A DNA stretch of 64,000 bases from Amphiscolops sp. MND2022 (lineage: Eukaryota). The position numbers were made by a program, and so were the translations under genes. Positions 31,435 to 63,017 of this stretch are shown in pieces (position 1 is the stretch's first letter; each line of letters starts with the position of its first letter). The stretch is taken from contig OZ076414.1 in the NCBI GenBank assembly GCA_964187785.1, forward strand, positions 53,382,001 through 53,446,000. Reading direction: 5' to 3'. Under the pieces are notes generated by a model that saw nothing but the letters and a program-made list of their open reading frames with translations, was not told the DNA's origin and did no database searches.

Positions 31435-31435
31435 C

Positions 31436-33465: not shown

Positions 33466-33494
33466 TTATCATCATCATTTGTTAAATTTGCAGC

Positions 33495-34712: not shown

Positions 34713-34717
34713 TAGTA

Positions 34718-36365: not shown

Positions 36366-36407
36366 AAAAAATACATTTCACAAATCATTTTTCAGCTTTA
36401 ATCGACA

Positions 36408-36872
36408 ATGAGTGGTTCATTCCACAAACAAAACCCATTAAACAATTATTACCGTGGTCCCGTTAGACAAAGAGGAAGTGGCATTGGGTCTTTAGCCCTC
36501 AAAGTTGCACGTCATGCACTACCACTTTTGTCCAAGTACGTTTTGCCCTCTGCCAAAAGAGTGGGAAAAGATTTTGCTTTGAATTTGTTGCCCGAAGTAT
36601 TTGATGTTGTCACTGGTCGTGGTGGTGAACCAGCAACATCTTCAAGCATTAAAAAGGCAGTAAAGCGTGCAGCGGGAAAAACAGTAAAGAAACAATTGGG
36701 CACTGGTGCAGCAAAAAAGAAGAGACGACAACAGTCAGTTGGAAAGAGTTCCAAGACCAAAAACAGTCGCACAGCAAAAAAGGGCCGCAAAAAAACATCA
36801 GGAGGCAAAACAACAACAACGAAAAAGACTCAAAAACGCAAAAAGATTGACATTTTTCAAAACTTGCCTTGA
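36408..36872 (+). CDS. Lys-rich putative virion core (pVII-like) protein
   Basis: YY...RQRGSGIGSL motif (adenain-type GxG cleavage context) and a highly basic C-terminus, immediately upstream of the MCP. Confidence 0.7.
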   Translation: MSGSFHKQNPLNNYYRGPVRQRGSGIGSLALKVARHALPLLSKYVLPSAKRVGKDFALNLLPEVFDVVTGRGGEPATSSSIKKAVKRAAGKTVKKQLGTGAAKKKRRQQSVGKSSKTKNSRTAKKGRKKTSGGKTTTTKKTQKRKKIDIFQNLP

Positions 36873-36907
36873 CGGTCAATAACATTCGTAATATTATTCT
36901 CAAAACA

Positions 36908-38206
36908 ATGACGACGACGGCGGCGCACATAATACCTAAACCGGCAACCCACTCTAGTCTGGACATTTTTTCTAAGCCAGAAGTGCTTGTGTCTTTTGAC
37001 AATTCGTTTGAACAAGAAACGTTGCCAGTCACTGCACACGATGCACCAGTTTTTGAGTTTGTACTCACCACTGATCGAAACATTTACTTGGATTTGCAAA
37101 GCGTCGAATTAAAGTTGGAGGCAAAAATTGGAAAGGGCGCCAATGGCAATACTAATTTGGAGACGGAGTTGGCTGGAGGCAACACTGTAGCTAAAGCAAC
37201 CGACAAAGTCAGCTTCATCAACAACACTCTACACTCCTTCTTTTCCAATTGGGACATTTTAATCAACAATGAAATTGTACACACGTCCAACAATTTGTAT
37301 GCACAGAGAGCTTTTGTTGAAACGGAACTGTCCCACACACAGGGCTGTGCCACAACAAAGCTCATTACGCAAGGCTACAACTTTGAGCCCGCCACCGGTG
37401 ATATGCTTGCCCACCGAGAAACATGGACCTTAGGTTCCGCTTCAAAGACATTTTATGGAAAACTGGCGGTGGATTTCCTGGCTTGTGATCAACTTCTCAT
37501 TCCCAATTGTTCTATGCGAATTCGACTGACACGTAACAAGCCCGAATACTTGCTGCAAAGTGCTGTCACCAACCCTGCCTTCACCCCAAAAATTGAACGA
37601 GTGTCAATTTTTGCTCGTTACTACACTGTTGCCGAAAACTATCACGTCAATTTACAACGATCTCTACTCAAGTGGCCTGCTAGATACAACTATTTTGAAG
37701 TACGCAGCAAGACATTTGTGATTCCAAGGGACCAAAGTCATTTTATTCGTGAAGACATTTTCAATGCAGAACCCATTAGACGCATGGTACTGGCCATGTG
37801 TCCCAACAATCAGTTTACTGGACGTTGGACAGACACTCCGCTCGCATTCCACAAACACAATTTGAAGAAAGTGCGAGTATTGCGGAATGGTGTGCCAGTG
37901 GTGGAATATAGCACAAGTTCCAACACTCAACTTTACTTTAAGACTATTCAAAACCTCCATTTTGATCAAGACGGTCCCCTAATCAAGTTGGACAATTATG
38001 AAAATCACTACTATCTAGTTTTCGACCTTACCTCCACACTACAGTGCAATCAAGAAATTTACTACCCCGAAATTGTGGGAGCACCAATACGGATCGAGCT
38101 CGAATTTTCGACCAACACTAGCACGCCTTTGGAGCTGTTTGTGCTGGGAGAACGATTTACAACAGTTCAAATTGATCATACAGGCAAAGTGTTGAAACAT
38201 GGATAG
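36908..38206 (+). CDS. Major capsid protein (double jelly-roll)
   Basis: SLDIFSKP, FINNTLHSFFS..DILIN, LYAQRAFVETEL, GKLAVDF..DQLLIP, FDLT motifs typical of the Polinton MCP; intact. Confidence 0.92.
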   Translation: MTTTAAHIIPKPATHSSLDIFSKPEVLVSFDNSFEQETLPVTAHDAPVFEFVLTTDRNIYLDLQSVELKLEAKIGKGANGNTNLETELAGGNTVAKATDKVSFINNTLHSFFSNWDILINNEIVHTSNNLYAQRAFVETELSHTQGCATTKLITQGYNFEPATGDMLAHRETWTLGSASKTFYGKLAVDFLACDQLLIPNCSMRIRLTRNKPEYLLQSAVTNPAFTPKIERVSIFARYYTVAENYHVNLQRSLLKWPARYNYFEVRSKTFVIPRDQSHFIREDIFNAEPIRRMVLAMCPNNQFTGRWTDTPLAFHKHNLKKVRVLRNGVPVVEYSTSSNTQLYFKTIQNLHFDQDGPLIKLDNYENHYYLVFDLTSTLQCNQEIYYPEIVGAPIRIELEFSTNTSTPLELFVLGERFTTVQIDHTGKVLKHG

Positions 38207-38627
38207 TGCAGCCTTGCTACAAGTTATTTCCAAAATTCCCGCACTAAAATATCGATACTTGGGTTGCTTCGACCCCAATACTTTCATTTTCCCAATGCCA
38301 ATAGACACTTTTCAAATTGTAAACACCACTACAGACGTTGAGGGACATTGGATAACGTTGATTCGCTTATCCAACGGTTTTCACTATTTTGGAGATTCCC
38401 TGAAAGCAACAAGCTTGAATCAGTACCCAATGTTGTTTACCCGACTGCCACCACCGCCAGAACAGAAAAAGACAACAACATTATTTCTACCTTTGAACAC
38501 TTCAATAAAGCAGGTCGATTCCTTGTGTGGTCTCTATTGTATTTATTTTGCATGGAACTTGTTTGATAATACACCTAAAGTGACGAATGATTTTGAATTG
38601 TATCAATTGTTTTGTAATCTTTTATAG
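38199..38627 (+). CDS. Adenain-like cysteine maturation protease
   Basis: Catalytic set GHWI (H), FGDS (D), Q..SLCGLYC (Q, C). Confidence 0.9.
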   Translation: MDSAALLQVISKIPALKYRYLGCFDPNTFIFPMPIDTFQIVNTTTDVEGHWITLIRLSNGFHYFGDSLKATSLNQYPMLFTRLPPPPEQKKTTTLFLPLNTSIKQVDSLCGLYCIYFAWNLFDNTPKVTNDFELYQLFCNLL

Positions 38628-38659
38628 AAAAAAAATGTTTGTAAAGAAAGTTTTTTTTT

Positions 38660-39557
38660 TCAATCAGTAATTGCAGGCACATGTTTTTTGCGAAAATGTA
38701 AATTTAAAACTACAAGACCCAAACTGGTAAAGGGAATTAATTTTCCCTTCATATCTCGAATCTCAATCTGTATACTATTGAAATTATCCAAACAAACATT
38801 TCGATACTGCAAATTGGAAAAGGATCGGTTGTCGTAAGGGTATATGACAATCAAATCCTCATTTCGTTCGTTGACGAAATGTGAAGGCACGTAAAAGTTG
38901 GTTCTTCACATTGCCCACGTTACTAAAGTCTACAATATCACTGTATACAAAAATTGTGTGAAAACGTAAGATATCACAAGGGTAGGGAGCAATGATTTGG
39001 TTGGCTTCACAGTACACAGCATCCGTTCCCAATCCCAAAATTTGAGCCAAGTCATCACTTTGAATTTTGAAGTATACACGGCTCTGTCCTTCTGTAGTTC
39101 CTTCAAACGTGAATGAAAGGTTCAAAGTTTCCTCGTTGTAAGCAAAGGTCATTGTCCTCTCCATGTTTGTAAAAGTAGCAATTTGAGAATTCATTGCGTC
39201 AATAATTTGACCAATTTCTGTGTAACAACCCTTTGGAATGTTAAAAGAACGATATTGATTCAAAAAGGGCACATCTGGATAACTATTTATAAGTTCCTTG
39301 CTGACAGTATCAGGTTTGTTTACAACAACACGATATCGTTGAAGAGTCGGTGTAGGAATATAGCCTAGCGTGAATTCACCGTCGGTGACATTGTATACTC
39401 GGTTTGGGAACGAAATGTCTGTCAGTGCAACTTCCCATTCACTACCTCTGCCCAAATTGATTGGATTTGACATAAAGTTTGAAAAAAATGCCAGAGTATT
39501 ATTTGGATAAATGTCCAAACTTGCATTAGACAATAGATCAATGTAAAAGGAAGTCAT
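38660..39557 (-). CDS. Minor capsid (penton) protein, interrupted by a 1-nt frameshift near 38877-38879
   Basis: N-terminal FYIDLLSNAS..IYPNNT..F...WEVAL..I.FP; the C-terminal IQIEIRD..GKLIPF...LHFRKK lies in the +1 frame (ORF 38660-38890). Confidence 0.85.
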
Positions 39558-39616
39558 TGTTTTAGGGAACTGTATAGGAAACACAGAATTTGATTGAATG
39601 AGAGTCAATCACTCAT

Positions 39617-40012
39617 TCATTCATCTTCACTGCTGCTGCTGGAGCCAATCATCAGCTTTACCCTCTTTAGTTTTTTCTTTTTCGGTTGGCGAGAACATTT
39701 TTCGTCGTCGACATCCGCCGAAGTTTCTGCGTTGCTATCTGTATTATCGGATATCGACCAATAAGATCGTAAGGATTCTTCGTATTCTTGTGTTCCCAAT
39801 TGATTCTCCGTAATGGGCACTAGTGTGTTTTCCAAACGATTGAACTCTCTTCTCAATTCCAGACTCAAACAACCTGGATGTGTGCATTCCATTTCTTTCC
39901 AGTCATACGTTTCCAACAACATCAAATCAACAGAGTATTGACGGGGCAGTTGCGGCGGACTAGGAGCTGTCAAGTCAAAAACACTTTGGTCGTCAGTGTC
40001 ACTTTCTCCTTG

Positions 40013-40044
<32 letters not shown>

Positions 40045-40330
40045 TCGATCTGAGCATTTTTTTTGCCGTATCAACTGTAACTTGAGCACTAATTAAGTGC
40101 AATAAATGAACCGGTAGGAGAAAAGACTCAACAATTTTCCATTCATCATTTGTTGCTGAGTTTTTCACTTCCTTTATTAGGATTGCCGACGCTCCGAAAT
40201 GTGTCTTGTAGGCAAATATACGTTCGACGTCATTACGTTGTGTGAATATGTAAATCATTGTTTCCAACAACAACAAATTTATTCTGAAAACAATAATGTT
40301 AAAACTACTGCAAAAAAAAACAACAATCAT
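39617..40330 (-). CDS. Polinton hypothetical acidic protein with C-terminal NLS-like motif (alternative start 40258)
   Basis: 237-aa ORF with a poly-Asp tract and QPKKKKLKR near the C-terminus. Confidence 0.6.
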
Positions 40331-41098
40331 TTTGTGTTAAGGAGATTCAGCAGTGACCAGTAGAATGGATGAGAGCTGCTTGCTTGAAGAAGCGTGTTTT
40401 TAATTGATGGGAAAAAAGTTTATAAAAATTATACGTTCTAATGCAAAAATTTTTGCAGTGTGGAAAAAGGGTAGAATTTGCTATGTTACGTTGATCATTG
40501 TGAATCTTGTATAGTTGTCGGGTGGTAAACAAGAGCTACTCTAACTGCTATTCTCAGTCAATAAAGATGAAAACAAAAAAAATTTTTGAAAAAAAAATTC
40601 AGAACAAAATATTGAGTGAACCCTAGACATGGGCACATCAAATTCGTCTAATTTTTCGTCCCGAATCTAAATTTTGCATCAAAACGGCGTTTCTCGTAAA
40701 ATTGGGGTTTTTCAAAAATTTTGCCCTATGGGGGGATTTTTCCCCTTTCGGAAAATAATTTTTCAAATGGTTATTTTTTGGTCTTTCCAATGATATATAT
40801 GACAATGGGTGTTCGTGATAGTCATTGACAAGTGAAATTTCGAGTTTTAAAATTGAAAAAAATGACTGAAACTAAGTTTTTCCGTGAATCGAAACCATGC
40901 ATTCATGTTTAAATTTTAATTCCAACCAGAATATGACAAAGATACCTCATTTCAGAATTTTTCATTTTTCTCCATGATAAGGGGTTGTTGACGTTACAGT
41001 TATAAGTAGAAATTGAATATGTACAAAACTAGATTCACATCCTTAAAGTGAGTCTTGAAGAATATTAGTGTTAAATGAAGAAAACTACAACTTAGCTA

Positions 41099-45730: not shown

Positions 45731-46381
45731 TTAATGACCACAGGTTTTCTCAAGAATGCCTGGTTCAATTTCATTACAACTTGTAGGAGTCTCGCTCTTT
45801 TGGATTTCTCTTTCTGCGAAAAATTGATTGGGATCCAATTTAGCTTGCTCTTTCAAATACTCTTCTAGTTCTGGTGTCATTTCCGTTGTATCTTCACCAA
45901 TTGTTTCTTTTCCACCGTCGCATTTAGCTCGTTTATTTTTTTGTTTCTCTTTCTGCTTCAAGCGTTTCTCACGCTTTTTCGCAGTTTTTAAATCAGCTAA
46001 TGCTTCATTCTTCAGCAATTTTTCCTGGAATTCTTTTCTCTGTTCTTCTTCTTGGCTCAAAGCTTCATAAAACTGGTTTCGTTTTTGCTCACGACGACGA
46101 ATTCCTCGATACACATGAAATTCTCCGCTACCGGCAGCTGCGGATGATCCCATGACCTCTCGAACAAATTCTGGAGCCTTTCCCAGTTTAGGACCCTGTG
46201 GTCTCTCTGGTATTGACACAGGTCTATCAGGATCTTTCATCATCCTTTCAATTTTGAGTCTCTGGAAATCAGTGTAAGTTTTACAAGGGACAAATTCCTC
46301 TTTTTGTCGTAGAATTTTGTATTTCTTCTGCTTCTTCGGATCATCTTCATCGTCTGGAGGAATGTACATAGACCCGCTCAT
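45731..46381 (-). CDS. PRKRIP1: PRKR-interacting protein 1 homologue (DUF1168 family)
   Basis: QRLKIERMMKDPDRPVSIPE...APEFVREVMGSSAAAGSGEFHVYRGIRRRE...KTAKKREKRLKQK. Confidence 0.93.
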   Translation of the reverse strand: MSGSMYIPPDDEDDPKKQKKYKILRQKEEFVPCKTYTDFQRLKIERMMKDPDRPVSIPERPQGPKLGKAPEFVREVMGSSAAAGSGEFHVYRGIRRREQKRNQFYEALSQEEEQRKEFQEKLLKNEALADLKTAKKREKRLKQKEKQKNKRAKCDGGKETIGEDTTEMTPELEEYLKEQAKLDPNQFFAEREIQKSETPTSCNEIEPGILEKTCGH

Positions 46382-47404
46382 TTTCCAAACCTAAAAAACG
46401 ACGATAGTGAGACAGGTTGAACAATATGTAACAAATACCGAAAAGTTACGTTTCAGGAAGACTTTTTCTCCCCCTCTCAAATGACATATTTGATGATGTA
46501 ACTTTCTTCCTACTATCACTACTAAAAGACTTTATTCCTTTTGATTTTAGGAATATCAAATCAGAACCGATGGAACTATGTCAAATTACTAGCAATCCAC
46601 TAAAACTTACGGAACTATACGGTCCGAGACCTATCGGTTAAATTACGAAATGGTTTTTACAAGTGTTGTATCATGGCGAATGTAAAGTTATATAGGGGAC
46701 CTCTGTTTTTGAGAAAACCCAATCTGTGCTAGAAAGATCGCAAGTCGAGAAGTCACTATTGGGTCTCCGTTATAACCTTATTCAACAGGGCTTTGATAAA
46801 AAGTCATTCCGCATCAGAAATCTCACTCTCGTTTACAATGCTGTCAGAACTGATCCCAATGCATCAATCTCAGTTGATAAAGGTCAATGTCAATGACTAA
46901 ATCAAGCCTAATTGTTGTGAAAGACTTGTTAAATAGCTTCAGAGATGGCAATGACAACATCTCAGACGCTGTTTTGTTGGTTTTCGCTTGGGCTGAAAGA
47001 TCTATCACAACCCGGTGAGATAATTCCATTTGTATTTAATTTAATCAATTTGAGGCTCAGCGTGGGTGGGCGGAAATAGTTCGAAGGAACGGGATCGAAA
47101 ATCAGAGTTAGTCCTCAGGTCGACAATACCAAATTTTTGAATGGGATCGAAACAACTCGGATCGAAATTTTTATAACGTAGTCAGATATGTTCACATACC
47201 CCTAGTGCCCTGAATGCAGGAGCGAAGCGAAGCGGAGCGACGTGCCATATGGCCATGCCTCAATGTTGCTACTTGGCGAAGGGAGCGAAGCGACCGACCC
47301 ATACAACAAATACGATAAAATTCGACCGCATTCCATTCGATCCCTGTCATTCGATCAAAAGGTTCGACCTCAGTCCTTTCGACCAGAAAAATTCGACCTA
47401 TTTA

Positions 47405-48125
47405 TGTAACGTCCGGCTAGCGGCGCACATCCCGGAAGTGGGACAATGCCTAGGGTGCTTAAACAGGAGACCGTTGTCTTACTACACTCCTAGACACTGG
47501 CTTTTCTCCCAAAATGGTCTCCATGGGGGACTTTTCTAACGTCTAAGGAGACTCCTCTAGTTAGAGCTCCGAGGCGACGCGCCGGCACTCTCAAAGTCCG
47601 GACACGCCCCACAAGCCTGTAAAAACGTTCCTACATAATTCTAAGTCTTCCTACGACTTCCTACATACTTCCGAGGTCCAAAAAATGTTTATCCAAAAAA
47701 TACCATTTTGACAGTTAGGTATATGAAATGCTGACCTAGAAGGTCTGGCATAAGCTAAACAGAAGAATATATTACGAATCAACAAATTAAGGGGGACGAG
47801 CCCCAAAAGGGAGTACAGTTACTGTTTGTAGGTTTTCGGGAATCCAGTCATGTCCTTCTGGAACGGTTTTGCATTCTCTCCCAGAGGGATGGCACAACAC
47901 CGGGTAGCATTCGTCACTTTCGGCACTATGCGAGTCTTCATGTCAATAGTCGCTCTGCTTTCTGGTTCCTTTTCTTCCTTGCTCTTTTTTCGGGCGTTCT
48001 CTCTCTTCTTTTTGTTTCTTTTTTGGTTTCAACGACCTGCCAGGTCGGCCATTTTGATTCGCACACTTTCTGGTTGTTGATCGAATTTTTCATCAAAAAT
48101 TTGGTGCTGACTGGTGGACGTTACA
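47405..48125 (-). repeat. 3' LTR (721 bp)
   Basis: TGTAACG...CGTTACA; about 5 substitutions versus 59444-60164 by manual comparison. Confidence 0.97.
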
Positions 48126-48133
48126 TCCTCCCC
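48126..48133 (-). promoter_or_regulatory. Polypurine tract
   Basis: Minus-strand GGGGAGGA immediately precedes the TG of the 3' LTR. Confidence 0.6.
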
Positions 48134-48908: not shown

Positions 48909-51900
48909 TTACAGGGGTAGCGGCATCAGAGAGATTTCGTCTTGTACCCCTTCCATCAATGACTCATCGGTGTCTTGAGTAAGGTAGGATGTGGGAGGGA
49001 CGGTCTGGGGGCTGCCAGAGGCAGCTTCGCCCAACCCGCTAGTTCCCGGGATAGCTTCGGTTGGCTCTAGGTTTGGCAGTCCGTCCGCCAGTTCTTGATG
49101 ACCATGCTGGGTGAATAGCTGCTTAAATGTTAGTATTCCCCTAGCGTACTGTTCGCCTACAGCTCGAGTCTGTTCTCGCTGGAGACCATGCAGGCGCACG
49201 AATATCTCTAGCGCAATGCGCGGGTTACTGGGAACGTCTTTGCTCACGGGCAGGTCCTTTCTGTTGGGTTCTCTCGCTACAGTTGGAACAGTTGTTAGCA
49301 GCTGTTGAAATGTCTGGTGGATGGCGAGGTCTACGAGTTCCGGCTGGGCCCAGCACGTGATGGTGTTTAGAATTCTGGCGGTATGATCACGGGGCTCCGC
49401 TCTTGCACAGTACATTCTGGAAGTGTCGCATGCATAGGGATATAACAACCCAGTGGGCTCTTCTCCTTTCCGGCGACCACCCAATCTTTGGATAATTGTA
49501 CTCAAGATGCGCAAGACAACTGGCACGTCCCATCCATCAAAAGTTGCCACTGTTCCATTGTTTGGGTTAAGGGGGCATGTAGCCAAGCGACCGGGTGGAT
49601 TTCCATTGGCAGTGGGAGCGAGCTGCGTGCTCGCGCTTTGATCATCATCAGGTAGTTATGCTCCACCTGTTGGCGGTCCTTGTTTATGGTGTATGCCATG
49701 GGAGGTCGTAAGTTGGCGAAGTTACGTATTATTGATTGATAGGTGGGACCCTGAAGGGGCCCATTGGAGGTCACGAAGTGCAGAATTGAGAGCGATGGGG
49801 CTACTGCAGCCACTCGCAAGGCCTGCGTTGGATACCGCAAGGCCATAACTGCGCCGAAAATGGGCCAGATTATAGGAGCAATGAATGGGATCAAGTCCTC
49901 AGTTTCCACGAGCATCAATGTTGCCATTTGTGTCGGGAGCAGGAACCCTGGAAGTTGACTGGGGTCTCGGTTGATGGCCGGGCACTCATCCAGAGGATGC
50001 ATGATGCCAGAAACATTGACCCAGGTGGAATAAATCCATATCAGGAGAGCTTGAATGTTTAAATCTAGTTGCGCTTTCAATTTCAAGGAACCCACCGGGT
50101 CCAGAGTTTCAATGAGCGCATATATCCAGCTCCTTTGATCTTGCGAAAAGATCAAGAAGCTGAACAGGGCTGAGCCTCCTTTGTTAAGCACGAGTTTTTG
50201 TATGAGGGATGACGGTCCTCGGTACATCATAGTCAACCCCACGGCCATCAAGTATGCTAGCATTTCGCTGATGGTGGCTCTTTCCATGGCATCCATGTAC
50301 AAGCGCATCCGTTGCTCATCTAGGCCGTACTCGGCCTGTACTAGGGAGGGAAGCCAGAAGGGAGAGATGTTGTGAAGGAATACAGGAAACGGTATGCCTA
50401 GTCTCTCCGCGACTTGGCTTAGAGGTTCCCGCAGTTGGTCGTGCCATGTTCGGTACGTGTGTGTTGGCTCTCGAGTATTCCTTCGTACTATATCTTGGGC
50501 CAGTATTGACAACATGGCTAAGGTAGGTGATTTTAGTCCAGGTGCAGCGTCCACCGTTACTTGCGCTATAGGGAAGATGGACGAGTTCTTCCTATCGCTT
50601 TGAATCGTTTCAGTTTTCTTCATCAGGCTCGTGAGTTCTTTGTGGAACTTGGGTTCGTGCGTCTTTTCATCCAGGGTGGATTCATCTCGGCGTTCAAACC
50701 AGAGGTTATCCACCAGGTTATCACGCTCATTTTCGTTTGGATCATTTAATATCCTGTCTCCGCGCTCGCTCATCGATCGACGGGCCATTTCCATGCCATA
50801 GTCGAATGCTGTGGCCTCATCTATTATCATTTGGGAATTGCCGCGGTAACCAACGTATGACTGGAGGGCCTTGGAGACTTCGGCGATGAAGGCCGGGTAC
50901 GAAGCTTCGCAGGGACGCCAACTGTTGTTATTGATGCGTAGGTTGGACGCCACGATGTAGAAAGGCAGATCTCTTGCATATGCGGCCTCCGTCACTAAGT
51001 ACAAGAATTGTTGAAGGGTCCGGGGAAGGTATACGTAGCCTGGAGGTGACATGAACACTGTCCCAGTGGTGGCTTTCTTTCTGCGCATGGCTTGGACAAT
51101 GTTGGCCATGGTCTCTACATAGTTAGTTACCTCGTCAGTGACGAACCCCTCGGTGAACCCCTCATGGTCCGGCCGGAAGAATTTCAGGGTGCCCCGCAGA
51201 GCGAGGTGGTCTATTACGTTCGAATATACCAACAACGGAGGAAGTGGGATGGTTTCTGTTCCCGCTTGGGTGAACATTTTGTCAGTCACTTCGGCCATCT
51301 CGTTCAGCGTGGTACAAGGCATATTTAGTATTCTTACATCCATGAGGGTGTTGTGGGAATTGAAGGAAGACTTCATCGTCGAGTCGACGAAGAAGGCTAT
51401 CCTAGTTTTCTGTAGGAGGTCCTTTCCCATGGGCAAGATTGTAACAGGGTCCCGTGCATAGTTCTTGGTTCGCAGGCGGTCTTCGTCAAAGCGGCCAGGG
51501 CGCTGTCGGAGGAAGCTGTCAGGAACACGCATGTACGTTGAGTTTACTCTCTCTAGTTCTGCCCGCATGCGGTTAAACCATGGGGGGCATCCGTCTCGAG
51601 TGAACACGGGTTTCTTGACGGGGCGATTGTAGAGTACTCCCACTGTGGCTTTCTCTATTTTCTGCCTTGTGGCGAGGTCCCCTGTTCCAGTAGCGACCTC
51701 GAACTTCTGTCGTAGTGGGTCTTCTGATGACGTCGTGGTTGGCACTTCCCGCTGGAGACGCAGTGCGTCGCGTGCAGTGATATCCAGCTGCCGTTTTTCT
51801 GCATGTGTTAGGAGCTCGCGCATTACTCTCGGTCTCCTGGTCTCTGGTCGTGTGGGCGATGCCGAGGGGGGTTGCGGGGTAGTGGTCGAGCTCGATTGCC

Positions 51901-52783
51901 CAGCCTGCTCGGCCGCCTCTCTAGCTCGCTTTCCAGCGTTAATCTTCTCCCGGAGGTCTACCACGGTGCTGGCCGCCTTGCTCTCAGCTTTCTGCTGTTC
52001 TCGTTGGCGTTCTCGCAATTGTGGGTCCATCTGGAAGCCTACTAGGCTGGTTGGTTCCGAGACTTGTGGTGGTTCGGCTCTGGAGGACGTTTGGATCAAT
52101 TCTTCATAAGAGTCCTTGAACGTCACTGTTCTCGCGGGGCGGCTCTCTCTGGGCTGTTCCTCGCTCAGGGTGGTGTTTGTTGTGTTACCTACTTGCACCC
52201 CTCCCCCCTGAAAGGCAGATGGAAGCATGAAGTTGGATGTCTGGGTTGTGAGCAGTCGGATGCCGTCCGATGCCAGAGGCATGGGCGGTGTTAGGACTGG
52301 GGGTGGCACCATTGGCAGTGTGCAGCTGAATTGTACAGGGTGTGGTGAGGGCAACTGGGTTGTAGTTGGTGTCTGCAACACCGATTGTGAAATGCGCAGT
52401 GATCGCTCCTGGTCCATGGGGGGCCTAGTAGGCTCTCCAAAGACTATGTGGGAGCGGGGATCTATCAGGCTATGGGTCAAGTCGTACCCGTGCCAGGCAC
52501 CGTCGCGAAAGGTGGCAGAGCGCTCTATCGGGCCGACCCGGCTGGTGATGGTGAGGCTGACATCGGAGTACGCCGCCTGGGCTTGGATTTGGGCGATGAT
52601 CATGGCAAAGCCAGCGATCATTGTGGGTGTCGCTCCGTTTAGTAGAGTGTCTTGAACAAGAGCTAGTTGGTCGACTCGACCATCTATTTCGCTCGTCATT
52701 GGAGGTGCATCGCTCCTTGTGGTTTGTTGGGCACGCGCAGCGTTTTGGGGTGCAGGCAGGCGGTTTCGCGCAGATGCGTCCAT
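48909..52783 (-). CDS. Env-position ORF with central SGNH-like domain; 48909-49586 is a probable frameshifted continuation
   Basis: ATG at 52783 after a strong TTTTTCAG acceptor (52889); Pro/Thr-rich N-terminus and coiled coil; IAFFVDS / NMPCTTL / LLVYSNVIDHL / VFMSPPGY strand pattern; hydrophobic helical C-terminus. Confidence 0.6.
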
Positions 52784-53115
52784 TGGAAATGATGATAAAG
52801 GAGTGTTTAGCACCGAAGATTGTGATGGCAAGACTGATTTGGTGTGATAACTGGGGAAGCCGCGCAGAGGCGAAGCAACAGGACAAAACTGAAAAACAGG
52901 TCACAGTTGGAGTTAAAATGTCACGTAAACTGATGGTCACTCAAACTTTTGGGACGAACACACAAAATATAAGGCTAAAAAGTTCATGTGGTTATTTACT
53001 AAAATTTGCACTCACCGGTGCATTATTGTTAAAACCTAAAGTGCTTTCCTAGTTACAAAAAGGCAATACAAAAGGCCAGTGGCCTGGTTTGCCAAGAAGA
53101 GAACGAAACGTGTTC

Positions 53116-53640
53116 CTAACTACCGCCAAAATCGACTGACGTCACCGATGCTATCGAGACATAGACGCGATCGTGCAAGATTATCGCAATATTCTGGTCT
53201 GCAAAGTGATCGCGTAGCGTGGCGTACCAGGCTGGTAGGAGGTTCATCGACCGCTCGGGATCATATATGGGCAAGTGGATTCTGTTAATTTGGTTTCGAT
53301 GGAGCTGGAGTATCAAATTCGTCAAGCAGGCATGGAGTACTTCATGTAAGAGTGGGTGTTTATTCGATGCTCGGGTACATAGAAGGAAAATTTCGTTATT
53401 CCAAGGTGCAGTTGGCGAGCGGACTAAACGAATTGCGGTGCCGACTGCCGGCCTCAGGTGAAATATGTTTTCCTGACCGTATTCGCGAATAACATAACGG
53501 GTGGTGGCAGAGTAGGAGAGCAAATCTGCCGGGCAACACAGTATCACAGTGCCAGGGGCCTGCAGGATATCTGTATTGGCATAAGTTATCCAAGGTAGGT
53601 AGTTTGGTCTGGTCTTGGGCTGGGTTATGAGCTATTTACC
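53116..53640 (-). CDS. Macrodomain-like (OARD1/TARG1/Poa1p-type) module, separated from the integrase ORF by a stop and frameshift
   Basis: The frame extends upstream of the called ORF: ITYANTDILQAPGTVILCCPADLL...IFLLCTR...LHACLTNL...IHLP...W..LRDHF...IILHD, matching the macro fold pattern. Confidence 0.7.
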
Positions 53641-53706
53641 AGTAGTATTGCTCTGGTCACCATCAGGTTGGGGTGCTAGGTGCTGTAAGATCGCTTTGCG
53701 GTCCTC

Positions 53707-56700
53707 TCAGACGGTGCGGCGTAGCGGTCTACCTCCCATGTTGGTGGATGACCAATCGTGTGCTATGGAGAGTGCTTCGTTGACCGTGACAGGTTTTTCC
53801 GGTGTATAAGATTGTCGGTCCAAGAAGTATATCTTCGCCTGTCGGCAGAAGATGACCGCAATCAATTGTAGCCAATGTTGGCTCAGGAACTTGCCGCGAT
53901 AGACGTCGGCCAGGTGGAAACAGAGTGTATTCTCAGGTTCCGTTACAGTGCGCAAGCTCTCTAAGCACATCAATAGCGTTGTGGGAGACACCAACGTCGT
54001 TGCGTCGAGAGAGGTGACGAGTAGCCACCATCCTTTGGTGGGCTGGTATATGTCTCCCGGCGGGGAGGCAATGCCGTATTTCTCCCACAGTTGGTGTGCG
54101 GTGATACAGCGAACCATTTCTGGGCTGCTGTCCTTTTCCGCTAGCTCGCCGAACGTTATTGAGGCTGGCAAGGGCGGTATGATGGCATGGAGAGTGAACT
54201 CCAGACCGCTTCGGAGGGGTGGTGTCCACTCCTTGAATCGGTAAGTGGGGCAGTCGGAGGGAGATGTCGTGTGCATTGCTCTGAGCGTTTCTTCCAGCGG
54301 TGGTATCACTTCTCGCTCTACGCTAGTGAATGTTTTCTCTACCGTGATGACTAGGTGGTGTACCAGCGGAGGGGTCTCAACTTTTTCTCGCTGGGCTTTC
54401 ACGGTCAGGATCTCGTGTTGTGGATGATATGGTGCCCTGGCTATTGAGAATTCTCTTGCAGGGATAACCGCTCCCCGGGCCAATCGGTGGTCCGGCGAAT
54501 CGCAGGCCAGTCGCTTGACGCAAGTACAGTTACGGGAACCACAGGTTCCACACTTATACCGCGGTGCTCTATTAGCTCGCAGTTGATATCGTGATGTTTG
54601 CGACGACGGTCCTATCTCAGAGTTCCGGTTTTCCGGTGGTGATTGGGTCTCGGGTATCTCTGGTAGTGTCATGGCTCGGTCCAGTATTCGAGGGGGTGCT
54701 CGAGTGCTTACCCTTGTCTTAGGGCCTCTTCTGGGTCGCGTGGTTTGTGTTCGCGAAGATGTGGTGGTCTTACTGGATGGCATGGCGCGGGGTCGTCCTC
54801 GACCTGGTGGTCGGCCTCGAGGCCTTCCTCTGCGGTTGGTGGTATCGGGATGTGTTGAGCACTGGACTGGACTTTGATGGACCATCTCTTCCTCTCCCTC
54901 GATTCCTGACGGTGGTTTTGTTTCCACTGGACTGATTGAGTTCTCCGATCGGGGGCCGAACAGGGGAAAGTTGCTTAGGGTATCTGTCAGAGACGGATTA
55001 GATAGTAGTGGGGCCGAGGTCCCTGAGGGGGATGATATCAGACTAGGAGGTGCGGCTGGCTGAACTTCCTCCTGGTCGGAGTACAGTGGCTCTAGGTCGT
55101 CTAGGTCGGGGAACACTGCTGGCGATGCTGGGTTCTGGACTGTCGGTTCATTCTCTTCCCTTTCTGAGTCCGAGTCGGAGGGATATCCGAAGTGACTGAA
55201 TCTTCTTCGGGGTATTCCTTGCTCGAGGGCCGTTTGCGTACGAGTCTGAATGGTACGGGGTGGGACCGATCCTGTCGGTTCCATTTCGAACGACGCTTCC
55301 GGAAGTTGTTCTGGTAGGAAGGAGTCTCGAGAGATGTCCGACGTTATCTCTTCGTTGCTTTCCTCCACGTACGGATCGGCAATGATGGCTACATTCTGGT
55401 CCAGCCCAAAGGGTTGGTGTGCAGCCCAGTCCCAGGGGGCGGGCACGTGTCTTTTCAATCTTTCGTAATGGACCTTTTGACCGGTGTCTAGCACATATAG
55501 TCGTCCGTCCTGCAACACATCAGTCACCTTGTGGGGTCCACGCCATGCGCGAATCAGCTTGCGGGTGCCACCCTTAGGTATGATATGGCAGAACACCCAC
55601 ACCGCATCGCCTACGGCGTGCGCTTTGGCCTTGAGGTGGCGGTCAAACTTTAGCTTTTGCCTTAGCTGTGCTTGGTGTGTGTTTCTTCTAACTAGTTCGT
55701 GGATTTCTTGTTGCCTGGCCAGAAGGTGTTCTACGAATTCTTCTTTGGAGTCGAATCCTCGCGCAGCAAATTCCGGGTAGATGAATGATAAGGGAATGGA
55801 CTTTTCGGCTCCATGTTGGAGCATGTAGGGAGAGAATCCCGTGGTGGCGTGCCTAGTTGAGTTGTAGGCACCAAGGATTCCATCGATGTGCTCGTCCCAA
55901 TCCTGCATTCGCCGCGACGTGTAGACTCGGAGCAACGTAAGCAGTGTTCGGTTTTGTCTCTCCACAAGACCATTTCCTCGGGGATGCGCCGGTGTGGATG
56001 TCACCTTTGTCACCTGTGACGCCTTCATTAACTCCTGCGCGATTTCAGCTGTGAAATTCGTGGCATTATCCGATTGCATACGGGCTGGAGTGCCGTGCCT
56101 GGCAAACCATTTATTGAGGATAATCTTGGCAGTGGTTTGGGCATCATATTCATCGTGGGCACAGGGGATAGCCTCGGCGAATTTCGTGAAGTGGTCTATT
56201 ATGACCAAGAGACCGGTGTTACCCGACTCGGTTTTGCACAGTTTCAGATGGTCAAATTGCACTAGGTCGTTGAAGTTGCTGCTGTTGATGTTCTGCAGGG
56301 GGTAGCAGGGGTTTCCGGCAGGGTGTTTGGTTTGCTGGCAGGTTAGGCAGTGCTTGATGTGATTGACTATGTCACGCTTGATGCCCGGCCAAGTGTGTCG
56401 CTCTTGTACTCTTGCTAGCACCTTCCCTACACCCTGATGTCCCGATTCGTCGTGCGCCCTATACAAGATCTCGTGTTGGTATAGTTGGGGCATGACTATC
56501 ATGCACGGTCGCACGTGCAGCGCACGCTGTTGCGGAACGTAGTTGACGCAGAGGATGTCGTCCGGATTCAGGAAGAGCAGGTCTTTCTTTTGGTGGAAGT
56601 AGCGCCGCGCGAAGTCCTGCACGTCTTCGGGGAATATGGCGTCCTCCAATGGTTCGCCTTTCATGAGTTTTCTCAGCAAAAAAAAAATTTTTTTTTTAGT

Positions 56701-56715
56701 TTTTTTTGTGATCAC
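53707..56715 (-). CDS. LTR retrotransposon integrase with long C-terminal extension
   Basis: HHCC finger (AHDESGHQG...CLTC), DDE (QFDH, QSDNA, LVER), WRGPHKV, AT-hook-like RGRPRGRP-GRGRP, CGTCGSRNCTC, and a degenerate macro-like C-terminus. The N-terminus starts at an A/T homopolymer junction. Confidence 0.93.
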   Translation of the reverse strand: MITKKTKKKIFFLLRKLMKGEPLEDAIFPEDVQDFARRYFHQKKDLLFLNPDDILCVNYVPQQRALHVRPCMIVMPQLYQHEILYRAHDESGHQGVGKVLARVQERHTWPGIKRDIVNHIKHCLTCQQTKHPAGNPCYPLQNINSSNFNDLVQFDHLKLCKTESGNTGLLVIIDHFTKFAEAIPCAHDEYDAQTTAKIILNKWFARHGTPARMQSDNATNFTAEIAQELMKASQVTKVTSTPAHPRGNGLVERQNRTLLTLLRVYTSRRMQDWDEHIDGILGAYNSTRHATTGFSPYMLQHGAEKSIPLSFIYPEFAARGFDSKEEFVEHLLARQQEIHELVRRNTHQAQLRQKLKFDRHLKAKAHAVGDAVWVFCHIIPKGGTRKLIRAWRGPHKVTDVLQDGRLYVLDTGQKVHYERLKRHVPAPWDWAAHQPFGLDQNVAIIADPYVEESNEEITSDISRDSFLPEQLPEASFEMEPTGSVPPRTIQTRTQTALEQGIPRRRFSHFGYPSDSDSEREENEPTVQNPASPAVFPDLDDLEPLYSDQEEVQPAAPPSLISSPSGTSAPLLSNPSLTDTLSNFPLFGPRSENSISPVETKPPSGIEGEEEMVHQSPVQCSTHPDTTNRRGRPRGRPPGRGRPRAMPSSKTTTSSRTQTTRPRRGPKTRVSTRAPPRILDRAMTLPEIPETQSPPENRNSEIGPSSQTSRYQLRANRAPRYKCGTCGSRNCTCVKRLACDSPDHRLARGAVIPAREFSIARAPYHPQHEILTVKAQREKVETPPLVHHLVITVEKTFTSVEREVIPPLEETLRAMHTTSPSDCPTYRFKEWTPPLRSGLEFTLHAIIPPLPASITFGELAEKDSSPEMVRCITAHQLWEKYGIASPPGDIYQPTKGWWLLVTSLDATTLVSPTTLLMCLESLRTVTEPENTLCFHLADVYRGKFLSQHWLQLIAVIFCRQAKIYFLDRQSYTPEKPVTVNEALSIAHDWSSTNMGGRPLRRTV

Positions 56716-59443
56716 AACTACAAATTACTACACGCTAAGTTGACTTCTACTTTTAGGTGACCGCAAGCCTTGTTGCTATCGTTAAATGAAGACTAATGGG
56801 TTAGCTTCAAACTCGTCGGCGGAAATTTCTTTTTGTATCCCTCGCGCAGAGCGCAATGGGGTTCACTTTTGGTTGTTTTATACGCTTGTACGACGAGGTT
56901 GATTCGGGAACAATGGATGGGCGATGGACGGGGAATGATCTGGGGATTGATTGGGAACGTTGGGGTTGAGTATTGAGTGGTACTCTGGTCTATAGCCCCA
57001 CGGCTCGTGGGTCAAAGAATTTACAACGATATGGGTGGTCTCTTGTGTACTTGTTCTACTTTCTCTACGCGTCCCGCAAACCTGGTCTATGACTGCTTTG
57101 GTGCTCCCGGTCACACTCTTGCACCCTCAGGGTAGAGTATATGTGGTTATGACGAGCAAATTGCACCTAGGCGACTTTGGTGGCGGGAAAGAAACGAATT
57201 TCGGTTTTTAGGGTTACCGTCTCTTAGTCTCGTAGAGTGTTTAGTGGGAGGTCGCTGGTCTTGGGGTCAGCCCTACGCGGATTTTGTAAGTACAGTGGAC
57301 CGTGTGGAATTTGCTTGATGCGCTAAACAGGTCGTTTCAGTCCTGAGTGAGGCACATCAGGACTAGAAGTGCGCGGATTTTCAGTCAAAGTTCACTCGAA
57401 ACGCTGTTTTTCTCGTCAAGTAACACCTCCGGGGAAGGTGAAAATCACTTCTAGTGCAGCTAGCGACCTGAAAATTTCACACCGTGTATTATACTGGCCA
57501 AATCGTGGGGAATTAATCTCCGATTGCGTCAAAAGTGACCCAATGGGTGTTACGGCCACTTAACAATGTTTATTAAAAAATTGACTATGTCGTGAAATTC
57601 GCAAAAAGTGGTATAACTCGCGTCCTAGGCGTCCCAGCTACCTGAAATTTCGCATGCGAGCGTAACTTATGCTTACGCAACAGAAAAATCCAGCGGCGAG
57701 GTGCCTGGATCAATATCGGGCGATCCGAAGTGACAAAACCTTGATGTACCGGAGGTACCACTTCTTTGGGTCAAAATTCACAAAAATGTCAATTTCTCAG
57801 CTTCGGCCGGGAGTTGGCTGCTCAAATTGCACAAATCGTCGGGATTTGGTACCCCGAGGACAAAAATAGGAAAATAAGGGTGCCGGGATATCCCGGAGAT
57901 ATCACACCAGGCTCAATTAAATTTTCGATTTTTCGGCAATTTGGTACACTTTCTGAACAAAACTGCGGCTAAGTTATCTCTGCGGGTATTCACAGTAGGG
58001 CTATCAAAATCACGCTACTAGCGTAACTTTTTGCGCTCTACACAATAATGCAATCCGTTTTTAGCTCTTCTTGTTAGGAGAGATTTCGACTTGTTGAAAA
58101 TACGAGGTTGCCGAATTCCGAAATTGACGCAAAAATAGTGCGTTTTCGACTATTTCTCAACAACCACTGTTCAGAATTGCTTGCAGTTTTCGGCGTTTGC
58201 AACGTTACGCTCTCTATTAACTGGAAATAGGCGAGCAAAACCTGGTAGGTTTCAAACAAGGTCTCTCACAAAATTTCTCGATTGCACTTTTTACACCCTC
58301 GGAACAGTACTGAAAATACGTGTTTTCGTCAATAATCCGATGTTTTTTTTGTTCTCTGGTGTTCCGTTTGGTTTTATTAGTAGAGTTAGGATACGTAATA
58401 ACTTTATTCAGGGGGCTGGGGTAGTTGCAATAATTATTTTGATTTCAATTACACTCAGATCTATGGGGTCCTTCACTCAGGTCTATTTTAATGAAAGAAA
58501 AGTGATGTTAAAACTTCAATTTATATTGGGGGCAGTCAAAAACCGTCTTGGTAGTAGTATTGCGTACTACCAAGCGCAACAACAAAATTTTTGGGCCTTT
58601 CAAGAGGCTTGGGTACAAACGCCCAAGGCTTCGCCCTTACCAAAATTGGTCAAAATGGCCAATGTTGCCGATTTTTAAACAAAAATTGCTGAATTTTTCA
58701 TGTTTTTCAAAAGGATAGCCCAACAAAAAATTTTGTTCTCGACCTGGTAGGTCTGACAGAACGTTTTTCAGGTATTCCCATAGGCTGTATACAATTCTAC
58801 AAGATTCTGGCTTCCAAAACGGGAAAATTCGATATTTGAGCCATTATTAGTGTTATTTTCGATGTTTTCGAGCTCAAACTTCAAAATAATTGATGCAAAC
58901 ACCCTGTGGGTATTTTTCTCAATTAGTTCATGCAAAAACAGGCCTGGGAATACTAATTTTGGGCTAGAAAACGTAAAGGGAACGAAATAACCCAGCTATC
59001 TTCGGTGAACCGGCACCAGGTGGGGAGGAAGAGGTTATGACGTGAAGCACCTGTAGTCCTGCACTCAGCTAGCTCGGGTCGTCACGAACCGTCCTCGCAG
59101 TCCCTGTACATTGCCAATTGGCTGAAAAGAAGCTGGAAAACCCGTTAAAACACGTTCCGGATAGGCCGGAATAGCTCTTTTAATAAGTACAGATAAGGTA
59201 CAAGGGGGTACTCTGTCTCAAACTGCTTTTTCAGGCTGGAGACCTCGGAAACATGCAGGAAACGCAGGAAAAACACTAATATAAGGCCCAAAGGGCTAGA
59301 AAAAAGCAATAAAAACAATCCAGGACCCTCCCAAAAGCTTCTCCTAGATCCGGACCTTACAGGGCCGGAAAGCAGGAGTTGTTCCTCGCAGGACGCGGTA
59401 AGGAAAATTATCCCTCTGTGGTCGCCATAAAAACTATTCCAGA

Positions 59444-60164
59444 TGTAACGTCCGGCTAGCGGCGCACATCCCGGAAGTGGGACAATGCCTAGGGTGCTTA
59501 AACAGGAGACCGTTGTCTTACTACACTCCTAGACACTGGCTTTTCTCACAAAATGGTCTCCATGGGGGACTTTTCTAACGTCTAAGGAGACTCCTCTAGT
59601 TAGAGCTCCGAGGCGACGCGCCGGCACTCTCAAAGTCCGGACACGCCCCACAAGCCTGTAAAAACGTTCCTACATAATTCTAAGTCTTCCTACGACTTCC
59701 TACATACTTCCGAGGTCCAAAAAGTGTTTATCCAAAAAATACCATTTTGACAGTTAGGTATATGAAATGCTGACCTAGAAGGTCTGGCATAAGCTAAACA
59801 GAAGAATATATTACGAATCAACAAATTAAGGGGGACGAGCCCCAAAAGGGAGTACAGTTACTGTTTGTAGGTTTTCGGGAATCCAGTCATGTCCTTCTGG
59901 AACGGTTTTGCATTCTCTCCCAGAGGGATGGCACAACACCGGGTAGCATTCGTCACTTTCGGCACTATGCGAGTCTTCATGTCAATAGTCGCTCTGCTTT
60001 CTGGTTCCTTTTCTTCCTTGCTCTTTTTTCGGGCGTTCTCTCTCTTCTTTTTGTTTCTTTTTTGGTTTCAACGACCTGCCAGGTCGGCCATTTTGATTCG
60101 CACACTTTCTGGTTCTTGATCGAATTTTTCATCGAAAATTTAGTGCTGACTGGTGGACGTTACA
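59444..60164 (-). repeat. 5' LTR (721 bp)
   Basis: Direct repeat of 47405-48125. Confidence 0.97.
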
Positions 60165-60279: not shown

Positions 60280-63017
60280 TTTAACAAATCAAGTCTCCAG
60301 ATTTTTCGATGGCTTTAGAAACCCCCAGCCCGGTTTTCCCTTGTTTTTCTCCATCTTCGTCGTTTTTGTTCGTTTTGTCTCCACTCTGAAGATGAGCATT
60401 GTAACACGTGTCGTGTGCAGTGCCTGAACCATAAATCGTGGGCTCTGAAAAATGTCCCGGAGATGAATCAATGAGTTCTGCTTCGCCCAAAAATGTTGTA
60501 AACCCTCTGGCAGAATTTTCTGGGTAGGATGTTCAAAATGCCGTAAATGGTTCCATATCAAGTGTGTGGGTATTACAAAAAAGCAGTCGGAGGAGGAAGA
60601 TTTTTTCTGCAGACCTTGTCAAGTTGTGGAAACGGGTGCTCCACTGCCGCTTACTGTTGATACTCTAATAGCAGTCACTAAAGCAAACCCCACCATTCTG
60701 AAACGAGTACCCAAACACGCAGGCATTCCACTAGCGAAGCTTCTCAATAAAGCGCTTGATGGCATAGTAGCAAAGCCACACGATGAATCGTGCTGGGTGA
60801 GTCTCTTTCTTCAATTTTGCGCTATTATGAAACAGCGAAAACGATCTGGCAAACGACAGAAATGTGATCTGGGGAGTATCATATGCGAGAGAATCAACAA
60901 AGGTGCAGCTCTTGGCGATCTTGTCGTCCCGCGTGAACTGAAGGACTCTAAACTCGAGCAAGAATGCGAAAAAAGGATCAAGTTGATCTCCGCCAAGCTC
61001 GATGAGGGGAACGTCCGAGCGGGAATAAGACTAGCAGCGTCTGACGACTCAGTAGCTCCCTTTGACAACAACACTTACGAAAAACTTCAGTCGGAACATC
61101 CCCCTCGAGCCCCAAATCATGCCCAACAAAATGTCGAAGATAGCCTAATTACGTTTGAACCCATCGTAGGGAAGGCAATCAACTCCTTCCCTTCTGGGTC
61201 TTCGGGAGGACCAAGCCTACTTGTGCCCCAGTTGTACAAAGACCTTATCTCGAAGAGCAAAGGTCCGTAGGCAACGAGTTTCTCCAGAAGCTAACAAGCG
61301 TACTAAATATTGTCTTGGAAGGCAAAGTCCCTGTAGGTTTGAGACCTTTTTTCTTTGGTGCTAAACTTATCGGCCTTCGGAAAAAAGACGGCGGAATTCG
61401 ACCAATTGCTGTTGGAAATACCATGCGTCGAATAATCCTCACATCTTTTCTTTCTTCGGAGAGAAAGTTATTCAATCGCAAGAGGGCTGTCAGCAAGGGG
61501 ACCCCGAAGGCCCAGCTCTCTTCTCCGACACTATTCAAGACCTCGTTAACCAAATGGTTTCACAATATAATGTTTGGTACCTCGACGACGGAAACCTTTC
61601 GGATGACTATCGGACGGTTCTTGAGGACCTCAAACGAATCATCGCTAGCGCCGACGAGTATGGGTTATCACTCGAGAAAACTAAATGTTACCTGATTTTC
61701 CTCGGGAATTGTACCGAAAGTGAGAATTTGGAAAATTTGGGGTCGCCAATGGGCGCAAGTGCTCGACGAGACCTGTTGAACAAAAAAATGATTGAATTGC
61801 AAAAACTATCTGAAGTTGTTAGGAAATTAGATGCCCACTATAGATTCTACTTGTTGGAGAACTGCTTTAGTCTACCTAAACTACTATACTTTCTTCGTAC
61901 CAGCCCTTGCTTTGAAGAGGTGGACCTCCTACAGCAGTGTGATTCCATTATCCGCAAATCATTGTCCAAAATCTGCAATGTGAATTTTAATGAAAGCAGC
62001 TATACTCAAGCGATTCTCCCAGTCTCCAAAGGGGGCATAGGCATTGCATCGGCTTCCCAGATTGCTCTTCCTGCTTTTTTAGCTTTAGCATCGGGTGCGA
62101 AACGTGCTTTGTCGTGTATCCTCCCGGAAGATTATGTTGATGCATCGTTTGAAAAGGCTCTGGATTTATGGTTGGCGAGGGCGAACCTGACAGAAGCACC
62201 GTCGGACTCCATCCAAAAACATTGGACCTCTCCTCTGAGCGATGCCACTTTTGATCAACTTATTACAGACCTTGATGCGGAAAATGTCAAAAGGCTGAAT
62301 GCTTATCAAGACCCCTTTAGTTCAGCTTGGCTGAATGTTGTACCAAGCAAAAATGTCGGTCTGAAGTTGACAGATCAGCAACTGCGCATCTCCTTATCCC
62401 TCCGCCTGGGTTCGAAAATTTGCGAGAAACTCACTTGCCGCTGCGGTAAACTTGTCGAAGAGGACGGACATCATGGTCTTTCCTGTGCCAGAAGCGCGGG
62501 ACGTTTCTCGAGGCACCACAACCTCAATACTCTCGTGAAACAGGCGCTGAGTTCCATCAAAGTTCTCTCACTTTTGGAACCATATGGTCTGACCCGAACA
62601 GATGGAAAGCGCCCAGATGGAATTACCCTAGCGCCCTGGGAGGAAGGCAAGCAATTAGTCTGGGATGTTACTTGTGTCGATCTTCTCGCCCCCAGTAGAA
62701 TAGAGAACGGGTCTGTTGCCAACCCAGGCACAGCAGCGGAGGATGCAGAGGAATTGAAAACGGCTAAGTACGTTTGTTTGACTGACAAAGGATACATCTT
62801 CCAACCCTTAGCCTTTGAAATTCAGGGAGGAGTCGGACCTTCCACGTCTACCTTCTTGAAAAACCTGTTTAAAAAATTGTGCGTGTGCAATCAAGAAAAT
62901 AGAGCCGGGTCCTTTTTTAGGCAGAGACTCTCTCTCGCAATCCAGGTAGGCAATGCGGCCAGTGTAGTTGGAACGGTTTGGGACGAAGACCACTTAGGCG
63001 AACTTTACTACTTGTAA
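60280..63017 (+). mobile_element. CRE-clade-like non-LTR retrotransposon (PHD finger, RT, restriction-like endonuclease), frameshifted and internally deleted; ends approximate
   Basis: PHD finger CFAQKC...WVGCSKCRKWFHIKCVG...FFCRPC from 60467; KKDGGIRPIAVG; QQGDPEGP; WYLDDG; CRCG..DGHHGLSC; RPDG...WDVT...KTAKY. Confidence 0.85.

Follow-up and report, generated by a model that had tools for sequence, protein, structure and literature searches.

The window analysed here is a 64,000-nt stretch of contig OZ076414.1 from Amphiscolops sp. MND2022, and all positions refer to it. Its minus strand carries a 12.8-kb Ty3/gypsy long terminal repeat (LTR) retrotransposon bounded by 721-nt LTRs with TG...CA ends, a tract resembling a primer-binding site (PBS) and a polypurine tract. 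The 3' part of its pol gene encodes an integrase with a long tail. The tail ends in two tandem modules with the macrodomain fold of TARG1 (OARD1, C6orf130), and in both modules the catalytic and pyrophosphate-loop residues of TARG1 are replaced. The integrase was recognised in the open reading frame (ORF) 56724-53707 by Integrase_H2C2 (E 7.8e-17) and rve (E 2.7e-8). The integrase and tail are composed as follows.

55786..56502, minus strand: integrase HHCC zinc finger and DDE core (Integrase_H2C2 and rve matches)
55447..55788, minus strand: post-core helix and GPY/F-like module (WRGPH), 66-99% identity in sister copies; the GPY/F label was given by eye
54835..55413, minus strand: acidic, proline- and serine-rich linker (18% D+E, 14% P)
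54790..54834, minus strand: three AT-hook-like RGRP cores, starting at 54831, 54819 and 54801
54568..54591, minus strand: YxLR motif (RYQLRANR), a pattern match in 4/6 family representatives
54520..54552, minus strand: Cys4 cluster CGTCGSRNCTC (C-x2-C-x4-C-x-C), 68-92% identity in sisters versus 21-73% in the next spacer
54169..54363, minus strand: predicted cap at the N-terminus of module 1, made of long strands and one helix, 65 residues, predicted local distance difference test (pLDDT) 75-93
53815..54168, minus strand: macrodomain 1, TARG1-type fold, loop-1 region about 19 residues shorter, LLVTSL and HLADVYRGK replacing TK and GxGxD
53599..53814, minus strand: joining region of two helices and a loop, holding both in-frame stops of the window copy
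53167..53598, minus strand: macrodomain 2, full TARG1-type fold, with the adenine-side Asp at 53571, T-R at 53376-53371 and PIYDPERS at 53271-53248

The pol stop codon lies at 53118-53116. A first-pass annotation of this DNA had named the GPY/F-like module, whose WRGPH lies at 55545, the acidic, proline-rich linker and the Cys cluster, and all three were recovered. A conserved IQTR motif (55257-55234) lies inside the linker. Of the AT-hook repeats in that annotation, three RGRP cores are present and conserved, but they remain below the Pfam AT_hook (PF02178) cut-off of 17.4 bits; the best score was 11.4 bits, in a sister, and none was listed for the window ORF. When the 363-residue tail was shuffled 20,000 times, no shuffle contained at least three RGRP, one contained the Cys motif and 73 contained YxLRxxR. 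Motifs similar to the last occur in several distant tails. An [RK]GRP core and the Cys4 cluster were both found in 6/6 family representatives and 0/14 more distant ones. Judged by its sequence, the Cys4 cluster is probably a zinc site.

Structures were predicted for the intact sister P0029 rather than for the window copy, and none of the models is a solved structure. The alignment held 108 sequences with P0029 first (99 out of 102 left by a coverage filter, and nine longer ones). The tail model contains two alpha/beta domains (mean pLDDT 78.7; predicted template modelling score, pTM, 0.52). Module 2 matched TARG1 in Foldseek (E 2.8e-9, template modelling score 0.85, root-mean-square deviation (rmsd) 2.2) and in VIA (Z 16.8, rmsd 4.4, 146 aligned), where DarG gave Z 15.8. 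Module 1 was folded alone from 107 rows and reached pLDDT 90.7. It matched TARG1 in Foldseek at E 8.5e-5, all seven of its matches at E ≤ 0.001 were TARG1, and VIA aligned it to TARG1 with Z 10.6 (rmsd 3.0, 116 aligned). Five VIA rows had Z ≥ 8: TARG1, a Bacteroides macrodomain, two DarG and Poa1p. These TARG1-type matches span model residues 70-187, and the cap lies outside them. In a viral library the best matches were likewise macrodomain-bearing proteins. The first-pass annotation had proposed a degenerate macro-like module ending before a TGA (53709-53707) and a clearer OARD1/TARG1-type module in the ORF 53631-53116. Fold and presence in other copies both agree with this proposal, and the architecture and the macro fold of both modules are almost certainly correct.

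In sequence alone the fold is nearly hidden. Pfam scans of the window ORFs and five sisters gave neither Macro (PF01661) nor a chromodomain behind the integrase, and a scan of the 108 members, which matched 26 families at E ≤ 1, does not have PF01661 among the 25 listed. PF01661 does match 6/20 selected reverse transcriptase (RT) relatives. As a single sequence, module 2 matched no Pfam family and, by phmmer against PDB, one unrelated entry (E 0.68); a first nine-row profile likewise gave one unrelated match (E 2). The family profile gave five PDB matches at E ≤ 10, all of them TARG1 and all weak (E 0.08-0.12). Atlas gave weak leads for module 2 (0.90-0.91), with one Macro cluster at rank 5. 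HHalign aligned module 2 to intact macrodomains of other gypsy elements at 97% (E 5e-11; reversed control 0.05%), and module 1 to module 2 at E 3e-5 to 8e-5 (reversed control E 0.1).

The modules had been thought to be separated by a TGA and a frameshift. The TGA is present, but the frameshift was rejected because ORFs 56724-53707 and 53631-53116 lie in the same frame. The second interruption is an in-frame TAG (53634-53632), 24 codons from the TGA. Searching with the tail read through its stops yielded 26 matches, of which the six closest (89-95% identity) cover 100% of the query, both stop positions included. Since these six read across both stops, the stops are particular to the window copy. 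P0061 (3178 aa) and P0086 (2974 aa) each encode Gag, protease, RT, RNase H, integrase and tail in one uninterrupted ORF. The RT search found 172 relatives; counts are from the 120 listed, with a module called above 30 bits. Both modules occur in one protein in 53 of these 120. Of the 58 with at least 92% RT identity, 51 carry them in one ORF, as do two rows at 74-75%; the remaining 7/58 stop short. When 1.84 billion representatives were searched with a profile, 367 proteins were returned at E ≤ 0.001; the 150 listed can all be aligned to the family, the lowest at 29% identity.

Enzymes of the TARG1 type are defined by the signature TKx(30,35)Px[IL]GxGxD; K84 and D125 are catalytic, GxG forms the pyrophosphate loop and D20 binds adenine (PMC6397177). 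The full signature was found in 5/407 collected proteins; these five are more distant gypsy relatives, and no member of the window family has it. Alignments to TARG1 and to the intact gypsy macrodomains set the T-R of module 2 on T-K and PIYDPERS on P-x-I-G-x-G-x-D. The catalytic Lys column of module 2 is K in 1/61 and R in 54/61. Each Gly position of the pyrophosphate loop is G in 1/42; the first is D in 38/42 and the second E in 35/42. No row has D in the Asp125 column (0/42). The adenine-side Asp, equivalent to Asp20, is kept in 48/55 rows of module 2, and none is evident in module 1. Module 1 has T-S or T-A at T-K (K 0/57) and D-x-Y-R-G in loop 3, with G in 1/57 and 0/55 at the GxG columns and D in 0/54 at the Asp125 column. 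The GxG loop has become D-x-x-R in both modules, although the register is less sure in module 1. The first-pass annotation had overlooked that these residues are replaced. The tandem macrodomains of the SARS-CoV unique domain (SUD), which also lack the glycines, do not bind ADP-ribose (PMC2674928). The window family thus probably has neither canonical ADP-ribose hydrolysis nor binding. Binding or removal of ADP-ribose and targeting to poly(ADP-ribosyl)ated (PARylated) chromatin, as first proposed, are unsupported for this family; the idea probably fits its intact relatives much better.

Conservation was compared with the most distant subfamily tested (P0021, P0026). At this depth the module 1 core retains 45-46% identity and the module 2 core 41%, versus 21% in the spacer, 23% in the joining helices and 33% in the linker. 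The Cys cluster (68-72%) and the post-core integrase region (66%) lie above the macro cores. The new motifs DPER (module 2) and DxYRG (module 1) are fixed across subfamilies at 29-40% identity.

Intact TARG1-type domains were found behind the integrase in the RT relatives P0369-P0371, P0394 (two domains) and P0396. Those of P0369-P0371 sit at the C-termini, those of P0394 at residues 1640-1946 and that of P0396 at 1684-1823; P0394 matches human TARG1 at E 2e-45. Their residues make these proteins the leading candidates for active ADP-ribosyl hydrolases encoded by a retrotransposon. P0373 and P0384 keep T-K but not the full loop, and P0372, P0374, P0378 and P0383 appear further decayed (P0378 judged by eye). 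Many related lineages have a decayed macrodomain or none. In P0355 the module 2 loop is D-W-D-R-D. Its possible first module is weak (E 6e-4 against intact macrodomains, E 0.04 against module 1), and its tandem label is therefore provisional.

An RT/RNase H tree was made from 48 chosen rows; the near-identical copies of the family and the long concatenated records were for the most part not included. In it the family and P0355 form a branch (99/97) that nests in a 26-row branch (100/100) with P0369-P0374, P0378, P0383 and P0384. The other lineages of the 26-row branch have a single macrodomain, intact or partly decayed. P0394 and P0396 fall outside it, and either one capture with losses or two captures would fit. 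A quick tree of 26 macrodomains, with no host TARG1 included, set modules 1 and 2 on one side, the intact forms on the other and P0355 between them; the module 1 branch is very long. As the tree is unrooted, the order from intact to degenerate is one that we infer. Module 1 likely arose from module 2 by duplication, which the weak sequence match, the uncertain register and the very long branch leave short of proof. Other enzymes also lie behind the integrase in relatives: a superfamily-1 helicase (AAA_11/AAA_12) in P0381 (3108-3622) and a GDSL-like esterase in P0359 (1328-1469). This gypsy clade seems prone to accessory-domain capture.

The remaining features of the element are the following.

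59444..60164, minus strand: 5' LTR, 721 nt, TG...CA; 5 mismatches to the 3' LTR over 723 aligned nt (99.3% identity)
59411..59427, minus strand: PBS-like TGG tract, 16 nt inside the 5' LTR
56686..59410, minus strand: non-coding leader without a long ORF, ending in an A-run/T-run junction fused to pol
48909..52900, minus strand: second large ORF, lying where env would be, 1132 aa and a further frame of 248 aa (two frames in the window copy)
47405..48133, minus strand: polypurine tract (48133-48126) and 3' LTR (48125-47405)

The PBS-like tract may resemble the 3' end of tRNA-Arg. No tRNA and no Rfam family was detected. The order Gag, protease, RT, RNase H, integrase is found in P0061 and P0086, and the window copy keeps only integrase onward. 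Between the LTRs, the tblastn match to P0061 starts at its residue 2009 (56685), so the window copy has lost gag, protease, RT and RNase H. At the deletion junction (56678-56720) an A-run stands beside a T-run, fused just upstream of integrase. No target-site duplication of 4-6 bp was found at the window copy, where the flanks ATTTA and TTACA share three bases, despite 99.3% LTR identity. Recombination or an assembly artefact may lie behind the junction and the missing duplication. The family is a high-copy, recently active Ty3/gypsy family, and the window copy itself is defective. In P0061 a beta-rich insert lies between protease and RT. The same interval of P0358 (1107-1193) gave a weak match to the herpes dUTPase family (E 0.033), so a dUTPase-like domain is a lead only.

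The env-position ORF is unbroken in sister P0237 (1363 aa) and conserved in sisters (22 matches with 52-94% identity across the region searched; clusters with as many as 342 members). Neither Pfam nor PDB gave a family for it, and Atlas gave nothing above 0.86. Its identity as env is unsupported, as each protein has one region with a 19-residue hydropathy window above 1.8 and no family was matched. An SGNH/GDSL hydrolase, an idea formed by eye, is unsupported as well: 1/18 members matched, at E 0.27, and HHalign against the GDSL region of P0359 did no better than the reversed control.

Elsewhere in the window, a cluster at 26959-40336 includes a packaging ATPase of the Pox_A32 family (33686-34489), an integrase with an rve match (35250-36365), an ORF with C2H2 fingers and several further ORFs without assignment; it resembles a Polinton/Maverick-type element. 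DUF1759, aspartyl protease and RT-like pieces at 6803-10895 (minus strand) are presumably a broken BEL/Pao element. A non-LTR retrotransposon with a PHD finger followed by a frameshifted RT ORF (60467-63017, plus strand) adjoins the 5' LTR. Single-ORF genes of host type encode a USP5/13-type deubiquitinase (21116-23047), a DUF1168 protein (45731-46390) and a Med11-like protein (20030-20587), and these neighbours indicate a eukaryotic host. A 482-nt direct repeat (12135-12616 and 14131-14613; 99.4% identity, 1996 nt apart) lacks TG...CA ends.

What might the paired modules do? The reading that we prefer, with a probability of about 0.5, is that a TARG1 domain was captured and duplicated, and that the pair was retained for binding, as pseudo-enzymes, on an integrase tail that tethers to chromatin. 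Behind its integrase, an ancestor shared by the wider clade would have carried a host-type TARG1; the distribution of the domains is observed, and the direction of capture is what we infer. In the window lineage the domain would then have been duplicated, and the catalytic Lys and Asp and the GxG pyrophosphate loop lost. Since the fold is conserved, the pair would most likely serve for binding without catalysis, the usual mode of ADP-ribose binding having been lost. The AT-hooks, YxLR and Cys4 cluster would anchor the integration complex to DNA and nucleosomes, and the pseudo-macrodomains, by binding a host protein, would bias where or when integration occurs. If canonical ADP-ribose activity is indeed absent, a role in tethering or in binding a host protein is somewhat more likely than not.

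Several observations weigh against this reading. The AT-hook and YxLR assignments are short-motif resemblances, and YxLR appears in only 4/6 representatives. The macrodomains lie about 360 residues behind the GPY/F module, so the element's protease could cut them off. The pTM of 0.52 implies that the relative placement of the two modules is not fixed by the model. In sequence, module 1 resembles the intact macrodomains weakly (HHalign 6%, E 0.006), and its loop-3 register is less certain, HHalign and MAFFT differing by one residue. Module 2 retains, besides the adenine-side Asp, the Thr (44/64) and a basic residue at the Lys position. Finally, SCO6735, a TARG1-class enzyme, is active although it lacks equivalents of K84 and D125 (PMC9411070), so that missing TARG1 residues alone are no proof of inactivity.

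A wider reading, which is possible but doubtful, is that the clade uses captured TARG1 against ADP-ribose-based host control. Intact forms would strip ADP-ribose off the integration complex, the cDNA or the target chromatin; the duplicate in the window lineage would recognise a new ligand and thereby select integration sites.

The modules might instead bind or hydrolyse ADP-ribose in a non-canonical way, steering integration to PARylated or damaged chromatin or undoing ADP-ribose silencing. The TARG1-type fold of both modules, the Asp, Thr and Arg kept in module 2, the activity of SCO6735 and the relatives with a full signature are consistent with this, as is the silencing of L1 via SIRT6 ADP-ribosylation of KAP1 (PMC4695847). 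However, both loop-3 glycines of module 2 have become acidic and should repel the pyrophosphate. SCO6735 itself has that Gly, and changing it to Glu lowers activity (PMC9411070). Module 1 moreover lacks the loop-1 region. This explanation is unlikely.

Less likely again is a decoy or inhibitor, in which dead macrodomains block a host ADP-ribosyltransferase or compete with the partners of host TARG1, serving counter-defence and not target choice. Inactive DarG, TARG1 and SCO6735 have served to show that DarT can be inhibited by interaction (PMC9411070), macrodomain activity is lost recurrently in host-virus conflicts (PMC10221186), and macrodomains have decayed repeatedly across the gypsy clade. 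Nevertheless, a position on integrase behind DNA-tethering motifs suits a role at the target site at least as well.

A nucleic-acid binder like SUD, recognising element RNA, cDNA ends or G-quadruplexes and perhaps released from Pol as a separate protein, is marginally less probable than the decoy. SUD is a precedent, with two ADP-ribose-blind macrodomains that bind G-quadruplexes (PMC2674928), and several Arg positions are well conserved in the modules. However, SUD binding relies on surface lysines, and net charge here is +1 to -10 for module 2 (nine family rows, one of which, P0347_M2, is really a module 1 stretch) and 0 to -4 for module 1. Seven of eight intact or near-intact seed macrodomains lie at +1 to +11. 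That the modules are decaying passengers with at most a structural role, as the many lineages with a decayed or missing macrodomain and the lower conservation of the macro cores than of integrase might suggest, is very improbable given the open frame in 51/58 close sisters, the motifs fixed across subfamilies and the confident folds (pLDDT 90.7 for module 1).

No account of macrodomains in gypsy integrases was found in the literature searched, which lacked most subscription journals as well as supplements and repeat databases; the available portion of PMC4120745 does not mention 'macro'. The clade feature is apparently undescribed, although accessory domains on gypsy integrases are a known theme, of which it is one variant. 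Databases hold TARG1/OARD1-like annotations on transposon-derived proteins, and the intact form may have been noticed before. Chromo and PHD fusions with transposons have been reported (10.1101/2021.11.30.470311). The single defective copy in the window carries little weight alone.

Among known systems, TARG1 and DarG (the ALC1-like class) share the fold of both modules and are their best Foldseek and VIA matches, and module 2 shares with TARG1 the adenine-side Asp and the L2 Thr. In contrast to these, Lys84 is replaced by Arg in module 2 and by Ser or Ala in module 1, GxGxD by DPERS and DxYRG, respectively, and the modules are tandem, are fused to integrase and show 12-19% identity. TARG1 reportedly removes ADP-ribose from DNA (PMC8501950, PMC11102865). 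The intact gypsy macrodomains (P0369-P0371, P0394, P0396) have the same position behind integrase, and P0394 is also tandem. They differ in their full catalytic signature, in an RT identity to the window family of 42-53% and in having no AT-hook or Cys4 pattern match. As macrodomains in the clade range from intact to doubly degenerate, the intact ones allow a test of whether ADP-ribosylation restrains LTR retrotransposons, and the degenerate tandem, undetected by Pfam, offers a natural series for the change from enzyme to binding module.

SUD (Mac2-Mac3) is likewise a tandem of macrodomains in a polyprotein with the glycine loop lost. It belongs to another macro class and origin (Z 6.5-7.8) and binds G-quadruplexes through lysines, whereas the modules here are neutral to acidic. 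Epsilon-like endogenous retroviruses of teleosts also carry a macro domain on a retroelement (PMC4977317, citing Basta 2009), but as an additional ORF, whereas the macrodomains described here continue the reading frame of a gypsy integrase and are duplicated and degenerate. Y537-x-L539-R540 of foamy-virus Gag attaches to the acidic patch of the nucleosome and steers integration (PMC9040877, PMC12125541). The YxLR spacing in a basic disordered stretch is similar here, but the motif is on Pol, and a four-residue resemblance is a lead only.

A parallel in architecture is offered by the chromoviruses, in which a Ty3/gypsy Pol also carries an extra folded domain behind a GPY/F-like module (PMC5053271). 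In the window family macro folds take the place of the chromodomain and lie about 360 residues further out, with the AT-hooks and Cys4 cluster in between. Extra domains on gypsy integrases choose insertion sites, the known example being the chromodomain, and here TARG1-type macrodomains occupy that slot; by this analogy, a chromodomain-like targeting role for the pseudo-macrodomains is plausible. If TARG1 has become an integrase-borne tool, as in the wider reading, the chromodomain would be joined by another class of domain that targets integration, and the whole series from enzyme to pseudo-enzyme would still be extant.

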